Positions 17,235 to 44,242 of a DNA stretch of 64,000 nucleotides are shown here, in pieces. How positions within the stretch are numbered: position 1 is the first letter of the stretch; each line of letters begins with the position of its first letter. The translations under genes were made by a program, and so were the position numbers. Origin of the DNA: Heptranchias perlo. Its lineage: Eukaryota. The notes beneath the pieces are model-generated. The model was not told the DNA's origin. It worked only from the letters and a program-made list of their open reading frames with translations, and did not search any database. Location: the NCBI RefSeq assembly GCF_035084215.1, contig NC_090364.1, forward strand, positions 4,588,001-4,652,000, written 5' to 3'.

Positions 17235-19652
17235 TTTTTTCTACATTGTGAATCTGGGTATAACTGACTGTTTCTGGACCCACCAAGATGCCCATCAATT
17301 GTCCAAGAGATGGGATAACTTAGAACCGATTGTGCTCGACACTATCTGCGGGATGGGATTTCCATTTGTAAACTCATCGATCTCTGATATGTTGTGAAGC
17401 TCTGATTCTGGGAACAGATTTTTTTTTGTGATTTTTAGGCCCCCCTTTTATAAGATGGGGGTGTGTAGGGTGTGCTTAAATACTAGAAAACCAAATAATC
17501 CACAACCAAGTTTCAAATTAAAATTTTATTCTCCTCGTCCAGGATGCACTCCAGCCCCTGCGGTGCCCACCGGTCGCGGAAAGCCTCGAGCGTACCGGCA
17601 GACACCGCGTGCTCCATCTCCAGGGCCACCCGGGCGCGGAGCATTCGAGCAGGTCCTGGGAGAGGTCGAGCCGAGGGCAGACTAATTCAGCCGCAACGGC
17701 CTCGCCCACCAAGGACGCCCGACCCGGTGAAAGGGATACTGGCGTCAGTACACGGATCTGCGACCCCGCCCCCCCATCAGCAGGGTCTCCCCATCCCCCC
17801 CGAGAGGCACGGGCTCGGTCTCCTCCCCCAGAGAGGCGGACGTCCCCCGCCGCTGGTTAGAAATAATGGGCGGGGCCGCAGGATCCATGGCTGGCGCCAC
17901 CTCCCCTTCCACGGTGGGCCGTCCCTTAGCAGGGACCCCCCTCCGCTTCCAGGGAGTGGGGCCTTTCCTTCCCGGAGGGTCGCGGAGCTCCATGTCTGCT
18001 GGGGCCCCCACCTCCGCTCCCTCCTGATCACCCGCCAACCCGGGCTCTGTCGTGACCGCGAGATGTTGACTGGCCGCGGTCACGGCCTCGGGCTGACTGA
18101 GATCTTCTTTGTCCTGGGGACCAGCCTGTAAGTTCTTCCTCTTCCTCCGCGCCTTTCTCTGGCAAGGGTTCCCCTCCTCCCCCCCGCCCCCCCAGGCGGA
18201 GGCCTCGACGCCAACCTCCACCCGCGCAGTTGACTCTCCCGACGCGGGGGCGGGGTTGGGGGGAGGAGCGGTGGCGGCGCCAGCCCCGGCCGCCGTAGCT
18301 GTTTTGGCGGCCTGAGAGGCAGGGCAGTTCCTCTTCAGGTGCCCCACCTCCTTACAGGCATGGCACCGCCCACCCTCTGCCGTCCAAAAGACGCGGTAAG
18401 GGGTCCCCTCGTGGAGGGCGTTAAAGCCCCCCTCCGTAACCTCCTCCCGTGCCAGCTTGACGAATGCCTGGCGACGGAAGGAGTAAACATGCCGGAGGCT
18501 GTTCTCCCTGAGTCCGAGCGGCAGCGGCGTTACCCCCGACCTCACCTCCCCCAGTTGACGTAGGTGGGGGAGGAGGAGCTCGTCCGACAGGAAAGGCGGG
18601 ACGTTAGATAGAATGACCCGCTGCGCGGTGGCCTCCAGCGGGTCCACCAGCAGGAAGGTCCCGCCCACCGTGAGCCCCTTACTAAGGGTCAGGGACACCG
18701 CCCGCTCGGACCTCAGGAAGAACACCGCCCTCCCGTACGTTTTTGAGGCCGCGACGATGGCCGAGGGGCCGACAACCTCGGCCATGGCCTTTACGCAGGC
18801 CTCATTGGTCATGTTGGGGTGGGCGTAGCTCTTCACCCCATGCTTCCTTGTAATGAGGCGGAAAGGCGCCGGCCCAGCAGGAGCGGCACGAACTGTAGGA
18901 GCGGCCCCCGAGGTAACCGCCGCATACGTCCTGCTGGGTCCCGGCACCGGCGAAGATGGTGAAGCCATGACTTCAGGAGCCACACCTACCCCAAGTCTCA
19001 GGCCTTCGGATGGAAATTGGCCTGTTTTGAAAAGAATCCTTGAGGAAACCTCTGTCCCCGAATCCCAGTGCTTGGTTGGGAGAGGGCCCCTTTGTTGGTT
19101 TTTAAATTTTCCCCAAGAACACCCTGGAGAGCAAGGGAATATCCTGGAGAGCAAGAGAAGGAAGGAGGAAGGAAGGATGGATGGCAGAATGGGAAGGAGG
19201 GAGTCTGCAGGGGTAGGCTGCTGTGGAAGAGGGGCGGGGTTGCACCTTAAAAGGTGGATCTTCTTCTGGTGGGCAGGGGGAGGAGATGTCTTCCCCGAGA
19301 CAGCTGGAGCTGCCGAGGCTCAGTCCTCCAAAGATTTGAAAAAGAAAGAAAGTATCTTCACCCAGGCAGCTCCAGCTGTCCTGGGCCAGACACTTGGGGG
19401 GGACCCCTGTCCTCTAGTCTTCTTCCTCCCCCTACCTTCAGCCGACACACCTCACTGCACCGACCACCTCTTCCTCCCACTGGTTGGTGCTCTTTTTCTC
19501 CTTCTCCCTCCCTCCTTGTTGATGGTGGTTTCTCCTTCTTTCTCCTTCTCCCCAAGGGACCCAGGCAAGGGCCTGCTCTCTCTGCTCTCTCTGCTCTCCA
19601 CTCCACTCAGTGGCAGTCCAGCCACAAACACCTCCAAGGCCGAGCTGGTCTG
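17235..19652 (-). mobile_element. Tx1-group L1 element A: intact 5' end, ORF1, ~4.5-kb internal deletion, ORF2 tail, captured 3' segment
   Basis: 5'UTR and ORF1 (ATG 18968, MASPSS...CHACKEVGHLKRNC) match element B. At ~17646 ORF1 sequence is joined directly to the last ~130 nt of ORF2. Hairpin and A-tract at ~17420-17460, then unique 17241-17418 and a second A-tract. No TSD. Confidence 0.92.
17745..18968 (-). CDS. Tx1 ORF1 (truncated by frameshift), CCHC zinc knuckle
   Basis: ORF track 17745-19154; true start probably ATG 18968, by alignment to 25885. CX2CX4HX4C motif. Confidence 0.8.
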   Translation of the reverse strand: MASPSSPVPGPSRTYAAVTSGAAPTVRAAPAGPAPFRLITRKHGVKSYAHPNMTNEACVKAMAEVVGPSAIVAASKTYGRAVFFLRSERAVSLTLSKGLTVGGTFLLVDPLEATAQRVILSNVPPFLSDELLLPHLRQLGEVRSGVTPLPLGLRENSLRHVYSFRRQAFVKLAREEVTEGGFNALHEGTPYRVFWTAEGGRCHACKEVGHLKRNCPASQAAKTATAAGAGAATAPPPNPAPASGESTARVEVGVEASAWGGGGEEGNPCQRKARRKRKNLQAGPQDKEDLSQPEAVTAASQHLAVTTEPGLAGDQEGAEVGAPADMELRDPPGRKGPTPWKRRGVPAKGRPTVEGEVAPAMDPAAPPIISNQRRGTSASLGEETEPVPLGGDGETLLMGGRGRRSVY

Positions 19653-19681
19653 AACAAAGACACTTTCAGATTGGAGGGAGG
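19653..19681 (+). other. 29-bp remnant of ferritin promoter-upstream sequence between the two Tx1 elements
   Basis: aacaaagacactttcagattggagggagg resembles aacaaagagacactttcagatttgaggaagg at ~35934. Confidence 0.75.
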
Positions 19682-41762: not shown

Positions 41763-42043
41763 GATATCACCGAGACCAATCACCCAAACCAGCCTGTATT
41801 CCAAAGCTCTGATTGGCTCTGGGTATCAACCTCTCCTCCACCACACCCCTGTCCTTTGTTAATTGGTGCTTGGATTCATGGACGATTCCTGAGTGGTTAT
41901 CGGGAATTGTCAATCATCATTGGTGATGTCATTCCTTGCTTCAATGCGGGCTGTCCCAGTAGTATAAATACAGGAGCTTGGGCTGGAAGAGGGTAGTTGT
42001 AGAATTATCTAGGTGATAGTGAAAATATAAAGATATAGTAAAG

Positions 42044-44242
42044 ATGGCTTCCCAAGTGTGTCAGAACTATCACAAGGAGTGTGAGGATGGTGTCAACAAG
42101 CAGATCAATATGGAGCTCTATTCCTCCTATGTTTACCTCTCCATGGTGAGTTGTGTATTAATTGTCACTGTTTTGTAATGGTTAGATTTTCTGGCTTTAA
42201 ACTCTTTCTCTTGGCTTTGTTTCACCTCCCTGGTCAGAAAAATCTTGGGGCAGTGAGCATTTCTGGTGTGTAATACAAGGTGATCTTGTTGAGTTTAAGG
42301 ACTACTCCTTGAAGCAGCTGCACTCTATTGAGGGGTTTAATATATGAACCTGGCTCAGCTGCTGCCTGAGTTTGAGGAGCAGAAACCTGGTCAAGTGCTT
42401 GACAACTTTCAGTTTCAATGGGGTGATTGTAGCCAGTGAGATGTTGACAGGTCCTCACTTGTTTTCTTGCCTTGAGAATCCTAGTGATGAAGCCTTCACT
42501 GTGCCTAGATCTCTATTACACTAAATTGCAGAGTGTAAAACTACTGGAATGAAGGAATTTTCTCTTGTCTTCCACCAATTTTAGATTAGAATGGAGTAAA
42601 AGGAAGTACAACTTGCTCAGGAGTTGAGTTTGACTTGATGTGAAATGTAATCCCAAACATTAGTGTTTTTTTGCTGCTTAAATCTTCACCGCAGGGGCTG
42701 GAGTGCATCCTGGATGAGGAAAATAAAATTTTAATTTGATGCCTGGTTTTGGTTTATTTGCTTTTTAGTACTTAAGCACACCCTACACCCCCCCCCCTTA
42801 TAAAAGGGGGGCCTAAAAACACAAAAAAAAGGTGCTGGTTGGTGGGTAAAGTGATAGTTGAGTTGTTTGGTATCATGAGGGATTTTGTAGTGAGCGGTTT
42901 GTTCCCAGTGCTGGTGACAGTTGGAGTGGTTTGTTGCTCTGATATTTGGCAACAGTTTAGAGGCCAGAGATTTCCATGGAGAAGAGTAAAACCCACCCCA
43001 AAAAAAGAAAAAATCTTTATCCTGTGTTTTTATAGTGAAGGGAAGCTTCCCAAACATAGTGAAGTAAATTGAATTTTGCTAGTTAACAAATAGTAACTAT
43101 TTTTTAATGCAATTAATATCTTGAAGTGGAGGAAAAATAACCAAATTTGGACTTGCATATTGTAATCAAGGTCTAGCATAATATATTTAAAATTCTCTCC
43201 ACAGTCCTATTACTTTGACCGGGATGATGTTGCCCTGCGTCACTTTGCTGAGTTCTTCAAGGAGCAGTCACATGAGGAACGGGAGCACGCTGAGAAACTG
43301 CTGAAATTCCAGAATCAGCGTGGGGGCCGAATCATCTTGGAGGACATCAAGGTTTGATTTAATAAATGAGTGGTCTTCTATGTGGCTCCCCTTGGACTGA
43401 TTGTTTCAAATACTTTCTATAGCAATTAGTTCTCATTTGACTCCTGTGGCTTAATTCTGTAATTCTATGTTCTTGACATTGGTTGATGGTAACATGGACA
43501 TCTGATTTGCTTTTTGAACTCCTCCTATTTTCCTTCAATACTTTCTCATGTATTTTGTTTAATCCATTGTAAGTGATCTGGCTGACCCTTGATTCCCATT
43601 TCAGAAGCCAGAGCAGGATGAGTGGAGCAATGGTCTGGAGGTGATGCAGAGAGCTCTGCAGATGGAGAAGGATGTGAACCAGAGTCTGCTGGATCTGCAC
43701 AAACTCTCCACTGAGAGGACAGACCCTCATGTAAGTTCTAATGTGGGCCTTTGGGTAAGTTGGAGGTGGTGGAATGTTACAGTTCTTGAGCCTATTAAGA
43801 TCTTTATACCCAATATCTGTGTGTTGGGATGTCTATCTTGGATTTTTTTTGAGTGGAGCCAGAACATGAAGGTTGACCTACTGTGGACATTGAGAGGTAA
43901 GTGTGTCCCAGTGTCATGAGGATCTATGCATTTGTAAGTTTAATCCAATACTGCAGTATTTCCATCAATCTGAAATGTACCATTTGACTATCCTCCAGTC
44001 AGAGAGGATTAAAATCCAAACTCTAGGGGAAGTTCCTTGATATCTGCTGCTGGACATAACTATTTTCCCTTTTCTTCCAGTTGTGTGACTTCCTGGAGAG
44101 CCACTACTTGGATGAACAAGTGAAGATGATCAAGAAGCTTGGAGATCACATCACCAACCTGAAAAGACTGGGAGCCCCTGAGAATGGCATGGGAGTGTAC
44201 CTGTTTGACAAGCACACCTTGGGGGGGGTAGGGAGTGATTAA
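42044..44242 (+). CDS. fth1: Ferritin copy 8 (intact, 178 aa, C-terminus [11 protein letters not shown])
   Basis: TATA 41963; exons 42044-42145, 43205-43351, 43605-43730, 44081-44242; in-frame +6 nt near the stop. Confidence 0.93.
42687..43010 (+). mobile_element. Young Tx1 3' fragment C in intron 1 of copy 8, with a captured gene fragment
   Basis: [16 protein letters not shown], 3'UTR, ccccccttataaaagggggg hairpin, A-tract, unique 42831-42999, A-tract; TSD aaatctt at 42680-42686 and 43011-43017. Confidence 0.92.
42875..42999 (+). pseudogene. Captured 5' fragment of a secreted-protein gene, resembling elasmobranch ZP3-like N-termini
   Basis: [42 protein letters not shown]: signal-peptide-like hydrophobic stretch preceded by a 44-nt leader. 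ZP3 identity is from recall and needs BLAST. Confidence 0.6.

Follow-up and report, generated by a model that had tools for sequence, protein, structure and literature searches.

The target-specific long interspersed nuclear elements (LINEs) known to us insert into RNA genes, microsatellites, telomeres or other transposons, which are read by a sequence-specific endonuclease. Within the Tx1 clade, the family Dewa targets tRNA arrays. Members of this clade have been reported to prefer U2, U5 and 5S RNA genes, microsatellites, satellites, transposons and some long terminal repeat (LTR) elements, and their target-preferring families to form tandem insertions that sandwich a target-site duplication (TSD), for which transcription from the flanking target has been suggested (PMC4494074). 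Tx1L of Xenopus laevis is described as nicking one sequence within the DNA transposon Tx1D (PMC1950540, PMC4494074). Here we examine a Tx1-clade family found in a tandem array of ferritin genes of the shark Heptranchias perlo, in a window of 64,000 nucleotides (NC_090364.1, here C43, positions 4588001-4652000). The family is concentrated at the 5′ regions of ferritin and zona pellucida (ZP) genes, where its full-length copies stand head to tail in trains that duplicate pieces of the host promoter.

Comparison with described systems places this behavior between several precedents. Tx1L, the closest named relative, also inserts in a targeted manner, but it uses a single site in a DNA transposon, whereas the present family inserts at numerous motif-free sites in the 5′ regions of genes and has an endonuclease recognition loop without the RDGH tip. 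Keno, Kibi, Koshi, Tx1-Mar and SINEU-3 share its clade, a preference for repeated loci and tandem insertions; in the available part of their description, however, the reported targets exclude protein-gene promoters, and no promoter-duplicating trains appear. The U2, tRNA-array and microsatellite targets of the Keno, Dewa, Kibi and Koshi type are not those of the present family. Regions upstream of protein-coding genes are preferred by Tf1, P element, Mutator and mPing (PMC6719617), but these are LTR or DNA transposons with promoters of their own that are not limited to a few germline genes and do not template a 5′ end on a resident copy. Zorro3 of Candida, from the L1 clade, is reported to be biased to promoter regions and often to gain its 5′ end by recombining with a resident (PMC1965478); as far as that account extends, the outcome for Zorro3 and for chimeric L1 is mostly deletion between two copies, whereas here the nick lies upstream of the resident and the promoter is duplicated, repeatedly, into trains. 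R2 is described as being co-transcribed from a redundant host rDNA unit (PMC4494074) and as making seamless 5′ junctions by annealing to the upstream target (PMC11371274); it relies on a restriction-like endonuclease and one site in an RNA polymerase I array, in contrast to the APE endonuclease, many sites and RNA polymerase II (Pol II) genes seen here. The full-text literature yielded no Tx1 family at ferritin or ZP promoters and no promoter-duplicating trains, although subscription papers, Repbase entries and supplements may hold such annotation. What appears to be new is a Tx1 family at ferritin and ZP 5′ regions with promoter-duplicating trains; target preference in the clade, promoter preference and recombination with residents were already known.

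Genome-wide concentration at ferritin and ZP 5′ regions

The second open reading frame (ORF2) matches Pfam Exo_endo_phos and RVT_1, corresponding to APE endonuclease and reverse transcriptase (RT) domains. Its nearest named relative is the Xenopus Tx1 ORF2 (Tx1L, YTX2), at 55% identity over residues 1-900, 50% over 1296 amino acids (aa) and 64% in the RT. Placing the RT in a tree, as the first-pass annotation of the window had proposed, put it on one branch with Xenopus Tx1, turtle and sturgeon elements, separate from teleost Tx1-like proteins (Shimodaira-Hasegawa-like approximate likelihood ratio test, 100), in a quick tree that included one Tetraodon pol-like protein without family assignment and had the named Keno, Kibi and Dewa proteins outside it. 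The A-rich 3′ end and TSDs of the clade are present (11-22 bp at 52 sites), and ORF1 carries a CCHC motif, with weak Pfam support. On its sequence, the element is a Tx1-clade LINE of the L1 group, close to Xenopus Tx1L. ORF2 of 1301 aa was found in 13 of the 28 copies read, and together with an ORF1 of 680-682 aa in 6 of the 20 copies read that are of the type of B, a full-length copy in the window. Copies with ORFs of 680 and 1301 aa occur naturally on C725. The recognition loop of the Tx1L endonuclease, with its RDGH tip, has been described (PMC1950540); the present endonuclease shares 43% identity with the Tx1L enzyme and has a loop that is shorter by three residues and lacks this tip.

Full-length and truncated copies differ sharply in location across the 3.25-Gb assembly (contigs are labeled C1, C38, C43 and so on). 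The 22-mer at the 3′ end has 572 exact matches, candidate 3′ junctions numbering about 2565; of the exact matches, the first 100 listed are scattered over C1-C7, whereas 37 of the 38 matches of the B-type 5′-end 28-mer fall on C38, C43, C725 and C1048. Ferritin promoter lies directly upstream, in antisense, of 29 of the 30 B-type 5′ ends read, through two junction types. The thirtieth, at C30:36.83 Mb (L101/L010) and the sole dispersed B-type full-length copy, carries nine ferritin-derived bases and a flanking duplication of about 215 bp, with a YY1-like motif nearby. A 17-mer from the 5′ untranslated region (UTR) has 128 matches; among the 100 listed, 85 lie in the ferritin/ZP3 clusters (74 on C38 and 11 in the C43 array), 11 at a locus termed X, one at a ZP1/4 promoter and three elsewhere, and none on C1-C8, where truncated copies are common. 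Locus X is a subtelomeric duplicated segment that runs into a CpG-rich promoter-like stretch. The ZP1/ZP4-type assignment follows from trefoil, ZP-N and ZP-C exons, and that of ZP3 from translation and a weak Pfam ZP-N match.

The youngest subfamily shows the same preference. All 49 of its 3′ ends were read: 16 lie at ferritin, either in the promoter or within the 5′ UTR of a resident copy, 8 in ZP3 5′ regions, 1 at the head of a Y-type copy, 9 at X, 5 at a hotspot on C14 near a wnt8-like gene and 10 elsewhere, so that ferritin, ZP3 or X 5′ regions take 34 of the 49. Counting each nucleotide position once leaves 26, of which 13 lie in the target against 0.007 expected, an approximately 2000-fold excess based on hand counts and on a target set generously at no more than about 0.83 Mb (0.03% of the genome). 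Measured against a shared target in more than 20% of flanks (PMC4494074), the youngest subfamily (16/49 at ferritin) and the full-length copies lie above this level, and the dispersed copies on C1-C4 below it (best class, 8/69). The concentration of Tx1 at ferritin and ZP 5′ regions is accordingly confirmed. As to closeness to transcription start sites (TSSs), which the annotation had proposed to judge against CR1 or random sites, the outcome is divided: the youngest subfamily exceeds chance as given above, but dispersed copies have no excess of TSS features over CR1.

Within the targets, certain positions recur. Over all loci, insertion points in ferritin promoters lie at about -235, -228, -87, -76, -52, -30, +25 and +44, and those in ZP3 genes range from -233 to +1340. 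In two C38 blocks picked irrespective of Tx1 (400 kb), a ferritin or ZP3 start is no more than about 3 kb away from seven of the eight Tx1 pieces. Among 39 ferritin units of the C43 array, Tx1 pieces of several ages occupy -232 to -208, including older subfamilies (74-81% identical to B) that arrived independently and in both orientations, and a 611-bp truncated copy sits at -228 in a unit that holds no other Tx1. As the annotation had noted for CR1 and SINEs, non-Tx1 insertions avoid this region: 0 of 32 non-Tx1 length differences fall between -979 and +362, in a comparison that omits units above 13.5 kb and 5 of 44 genes lacking a TATA match and whose 32 rows include indel artefacts (Fisher test on hand counts, 6 vs 2 and 0 vs 30). 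The C14 hotspot comprises at least eight events within about 1.3 kb, about 4 kb upstream of the wnt8-like gene, and shows that redundancy, which had been invoked as a buffer against damage, is not required.

ZP genes are oocyte genes, and wnt8 is expressed maternally. The identities of the genes concerned (ZP3, ZP1/4, and wnt8 downstream of the hotspot) thus suggest specificity for the oocyte. Five sequencing runs, for which the records list neither RNA nor a tissue, were not used for this purpose, their RNA status and depth being unreliable: in four of the five, contigs have each of the three ferritin introns spliced and extend over most of B, one X3 contig spans the 5′ junction of B, and ferritin exon depth is about 1e5 in X1 and X5 and mostly below 100 in X2 and X3.

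Copies in the window, trains and tails

The window holds four-exon ferritin genes in tandem at a spacing of about 5 kb, among which the following features were delineated (positions are those of the window).

10402..10750, plus strand: older Tx1 3′ fragment, 74-79% identical to B, about -208 from a ferritin TATA, on the strand opposite to A and B
17235..17434, minus strand: 3′ tail of copy A, a transduced upstream region of a diverged ferritin paralog (91%), with its junction in ferritin exon 2 (+1047)
17435..19652, minus strand: Tx1 copy A, internally deleted, part of ORF1 being fused at 17645 to the last 210 bp
19653..19682, minus strand: 30-bp fragment of the ferritin upstream region (hot site S1; about -235 to -206 from TATA), separating the tail of B from the 5′ end of A
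19683..19833, minus strand: 3′ tail of B, A-tracts flanking a ZP1/ZP4-type promoter piece; the same piece heads the Y subfamily
19834..26589, minus strand: Tx1 copy B, full length (6756 bp), with a 704-bp 5′ UTR, an ORF1 of 680 aa with a CCHC knuckle, and an ORF2 (APE and RT) frameshifted near 23644
26590..26832, plus strand: ferritin promoter adjoining the 5′ end of B, with a CCAAT cluster and TATA at 26753
26833..28732, plus strand: four-exon ferritin gene, one unit of the array
42687..42830, plus strand: Tx1 copy C, 5′-truncated (about 130 bp), with an A-tract, in ferritin intron 1 (+728)
42831..43017, plus strand: 3′ tail of C, a ZP3-type leader and exon 1 start followed by an A-tract; weak Pfam ZP-N match
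30784-31100, 41438-41760 and 53860-54175: fragments related to the older Tx1 piece

The six Tx1 junctions named by the first-pass annotation (19652, 19682/3, 26589, 10402, 17234 and 42687) were all recovered in place. Four of them, said to cluster upstream of the ferritin CCAAT boxes, indeed do so: 19652, 19682/3, 26589 and 10402 lie about -206, -235, -164 and -208/-213 from TATA, a span of about 70 bp. The other two, 17234 and 42687, lie as described in the 5′ half of ferritin genes, at the exon 2 and intron 1 positions given above. The captured tails also bear out their first description. That of C, reported to begin at an mRNA leader, comprises a ZP3-type leader and exon 1 and starts 6 nt into the A-run of the TATA box (97% identity); that of B, reported to lie near a TATA-like box, matches a ZP1/ZP4-type promoter in antisense and starts just downstream of the box (84-96%). 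Two corrections apply. The junctions are not all independent events, since the block of A and B is present three times in the C43 array and the 5′ junction of B is common to 23 of the 30 5′ ends read, and B is not intact, one extra base near 23644 shifting the frame within the endonuclease. The ferritin promoter beside B contains hot sites (-87, -76, -52, -30 and about +44) that are insertion points in other paralogs. The window taken alone cannot rule out chance and duplication; the genome-wide counts do.

At the target loci, full-length copies are arranged in head-to-tail series of as many as five per promoter, with 75-210 bp of promoter sequence between one copy and the next (450 bp at X). 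Each copy in a train has its own nick position and tail, yet shares the exact 5′ junction of the resident: new copies land just upstream of a resident and thereby duplicate the promoter piece, and they do so with truncated residents as well. Trains seeded by truncated residents comprise five 812-bp copies on C14, three 505-bp copies on C4 and 150-bp copies at C43:4.28 Mb, each train having a single truncation point and differing tails. This pattern indicates that the 5′ end is fixed by the resident DNA, and not by the RNA or by the point at which the enzyme stops. Comparison of adjacent copies points to frequent chimeras among those nearest the gene: in the 5′ 1.8 kb, 6 of 12 neighbor pairs differ at 0-3 sites, whereas 2.9% of 173 other pairs differ at 6 or fewer, and 4 of these 6 pairs differ at 37-77 sites in the 3′ 1.8 kb. 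An origin of the spacer fragments by 5′ transduction was rejected where checked, the fragments matching the local paralog and truncated residents behaving alike.

Pieces of host promoter head the full-length copies, which are divergent to the CCAAT clusters at ferritin and ZP1/4 and in sense within ZP3 exon 1. The head of the Y subfamily is a captured ZP1/4 promoter; the 704-bp 5′ UTR of B itself contains one CCAAT. Re-insertion also occurs at and within copies of the family itself.

The tails do preserve earlier sites, as first proposed. Transduced pieces are present in 21 of the 49 dispersed copies having a TSD, and 28 of 33 such pieces map to ferritin, ZP3, X, the ZP1/4-derived head or Tx1; recent sources therefore sat nearly all at ferritin, ZP3, X and ZP1/4-head loci. 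Successive sites are ordered ZP3-ferritin-ZP3, X-X-ZP3 or ZP3-ZP3-X, and a single dispersed copy carries in its tail the record of four ferritin paralogs, all at the same site. Tails of less than about 30 nt in which the current site is repeated may represent TSDs left by re-insertions that carried poly(A) alone, such as are observed at X and at the ZP1/4 promoter, and not records of earlier generations; whichever they are, the site has been attacked repeatedly. Gene-proximal ferritin copies encode exactly the same RT protein as the locus X copies found on C13 and C32. Local hopping in cis was rejected because tails and RT identity connect different contigs.

Dispersed copies and the choice between explanations

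The 70 dispersed copies on C1-C4 are 5′-truncated, most with TSDs of 11-22 bp. Homing of the whole family to TSSs, as the annotation had supposed, does not hold for them: compared with their own distal flanks and with 30 CR1 3′ flanks, 45 loci lack an excess of CCAAT (p 0.86), NF-Y (0.18), TATA (0.11) or CpG (0.45), and general TSS homing of dispersed copies, including a preference for CCAAT-rich sites, was rejected. E-boxes alone are enriched (21/45 vs 34/135, p 0.001), for part of which an LTR-like repeat accounts. This 200-bp solo-LTR-like repeat has 8 of 69 dispersed copies within 10 bp, a 46- to 460-fold excess; a single occurrence was seen in the other 750 kb examined, and the genome contains at least 3536 candidates. 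Its members (the L058 flank and relatives) have TG...CA ends, an E-box, a TATA-like box and AATAAA, features by which it may be an oocyte-active promoter. One dispersed copy precedes an H2B start codon by 390 bp, and another is situated just upstream of a Rab12-like CpG island, both without a CR1 control. As an observation apart, two of the 69 lie in histone clusters (L051 and L087), upstream of H2B and downstream of an H2A pseudogene. RNA-gene targets were rejected, with no tRNA in 60 loci and no snRNA, tRNA or rRNA in 29 sources, and no microsatellite flanks were seen at the insertion sites examined. In agreement with the annotation, a shared nick motif was also rejected, nothing beyond AA being common to 52 dispersed nick sites or to the hot sites.

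Of the earlier proposal, a specificity for Pol II promoters of germline genes, a motif-free preference for ferritin, ZP3 and ZP1/4 5′ regions thus stands, whereas its extension to the whole family and the need for redundancy do not. Given the location of the copies, their recurrent motif-free nick sites, host promoter heads, tails that lead from contig to contig and resident-defined 5′ junctions, we consider it reasonably probable that an endonuclease of weak specificity is attracted to promoters that are strongly active, probably in the oocyte, that transcription is borrowed from the host and that the cDNA is completed on a resident. Under this model, the element would home to open, highly active, probably oocyte promoters and be transcribed from a borrowed host promoter. 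Reverse transcription would begin at a nick lying 15-900 bp upstream of a resident; the cDNA would pair with that resident on the same molecule or its sister, and would be completed with the resident as template, past the 5′ junction of the latter and on to the nick. A new copy would be full-length from the outset, and its neighbor would be preceded by a duplicate of the promoter piece; only such copies would become sources, insertions elsewhere remaining truncated dead ends, and unequal exchange would subsequently shuffle and expand the trains. The stronger formulation, to which we give an even chance, is of a promoterless vertebrate LINE with motif-free homing to the strongest oocyte Pol II promoters, in which target-primed reverse transcription would renew the 3′ half, the resident would supply the 5′ half and the promoter duplicate, and the tail would serve as a log.

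Several observations weigh against this model. In addition to the featureless flanks of the 45 dispersed loci, the spread of insertions to +1340 in ZP3 and +1047 in ferritin exceeds the TSS alone, and the C14 hotspot lies about 4 kb from the wnt8 TATA. Apart from a thymopoietin exon about 18 kb from the C30 copy, no gene was found within 10-20 kb at locus X, C30 or C4, among the 105/168 and 135 listed ORFs scanned. Trains at X show no clear contrast between 5′ and 3′ parts. The reverse pattern, a differing 5′ and a matching 3′ part, occurs in 3 of 12 neighbor pairs, and several trains join ZP3-type heads to ferritin fragments; unequal exchange is therefore also at work, is common after insertion and could likewise produce chimeras. 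Most target-class hits, moreover, adjoin a resident copy, and two of the nine dispersed youngest copies sit within another Tx1. Attraction to residents therefore explains part of the signal, and may explain most of it.

The last point can be carried further, to a ribonucleoprotein drawn to resident Tx1 by RNA-DNA pairing or bound proteins and nicking beside it, promoter location then reflecting which founders were transcribed. Such self-homing would suit the trains at truncated residents far from a recognised promoter (C4), the insertions within the Tx1 5′ UTR, ORF2 and 3′ UTR, the use of identical nucleotides many times over and the presence of another Tx1 piece within 1.5 kb at 3 of 48 dispersed sites vs 0 of 30 CR1 loci. 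We nonetheless regard it as rather unlikely, because resident-free ferritin promoters and the LTR-like repeat are hit too, nicks cluster in host promoter DNA upstream of the 5′ end of the resident, older subfamilies reached -232 to -208 independently in both orientations, and the founders picked three oocyte gene families on separate contigs. Exchange could also act at a later step, a truncated insert that had homed to a promoter gaining the 5′ part of a resident by unequal crossover with the sister or homolog. This route, which does not exclude one-step completion on a resident, is a possible one on which we would not rely: mosaic trains, reversed neighbor pairs and identical adjacent units at C725 and C14 fit it, whereas its intermediates, same-strand copies with their own truncation point directly upstream of a resident, should be common and were absent from the trains read. 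In addition, residents of 150-800 bp give the same outcome, and recombination of new cDNA with a resident during insertion has been reported for Zorro3 and L1 (PMC1965478).

Two further explanations are close to excluded. That the nick is sequence-specific, as in Tx1L, with a motif common to the targets, would accord with the close kinship of the two elements and with the reuse of fixed nucleotides (ferritin -228, -87 and +44; X -235 and -508; ZP3 +6), but is highly improbable in view of the missing consensus, of at least 10 positions within one promoter and of the shorter recognition loop. A model of random insertion, in which redundant arrays tolerate the copies, tandem duplication multiplies them and tails reflect where expressed sources live, agrees with the probably dispersed position of most of the 572 3′ ends and with the duplicated blocks within arrays, and source bias does account for the tails. 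It is extremely improbable all the same, as 13 of 26 distinct positions fall in 0.03% of the genome, the C14 events crowd into so short an interval, and duplication cannot yield units with different nick sites and tails.

The preferred model of promoter homing with completion on a resident bears on several questions. In a close relative of the sequence-specific Tx1L, an approximately 2000-fold concentration at protein-gene 5′ regions without a motif would make the switch from reading a sequence to homing to a locus testable within one clade. The trains are natural evidence on an open step of LINE insertion, completion of the 5′ junction, and on a way around 5′ truncation, while tails and hot sites together amount to a map of germline-active promoters. 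An RNA-templated inserter able to locate active promoters would likewise be of interest for genome engineering. Ferritin and ZP3 loci are linked by homology between trains, and the element therefore probably reshapes these gene clusters.

Neighboring genes and repeats

The ferritin expansion covers C43:4.33-4.78 Mb and C38:9.6-17.7 Mb, with 44 first exons in 302 kb; exact exon-1 matches (n=51) are confined to C38, C43 and C725. An Rfam search found no iron-responsive element (IRE) in the window, where the ferritin 5′ leader is short, and these ferritins may be IRE-less and tissue-restricted; the literature search turned up no paper on expanded ferritins of this kind. Two further sets of features in the window complete the array.

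TATA of other ferritin units: near 5959, 10961, 16187, 31313, 36182 and 41963, and near 53646 on the minus strand
3505..4947, minus strand: CR1/L2-like spacer insertion that served as a control, located about -980 from TATA

A ZP3-type cluster at C38:9.2-17.7 Mb (L212-L240, L260) has about one gene per 60 kb with ferritin genes interspersed; its 236 candidates include Tx1 tails. In many ZP3 copies, the promoter has been lost to a Tx1 that inserted at the TATA box. A recurrent structure found upstream of many ZP3 genes joins a 280-bp Tx1 3′ end to an inverted 4974-6750 segment (L213-L238), one event spread by duplication.

Locus X (L241-L254, L258, L259, L363) is present on at least eight contigs and includes, beside its CpG-rich stretch, a 150-bp piece 88% identical to ZP3 intron 1. 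Starting 3.5 kb away from the C4 train is a CpG-rich tandem repeat without tRNA, Rfam or Pfam match (L373:3300-10000). One subtelomeric satellite, found on C1, C17 and C22, contains three Tx1 copies (L321, L335, L186), of which one has a piece of 5′ UTR. The window itself also contains a young full-length CR1 with an inverted partial duplicate at 55521-62100 and a 68-bp tandem repeat at 62348-62665.

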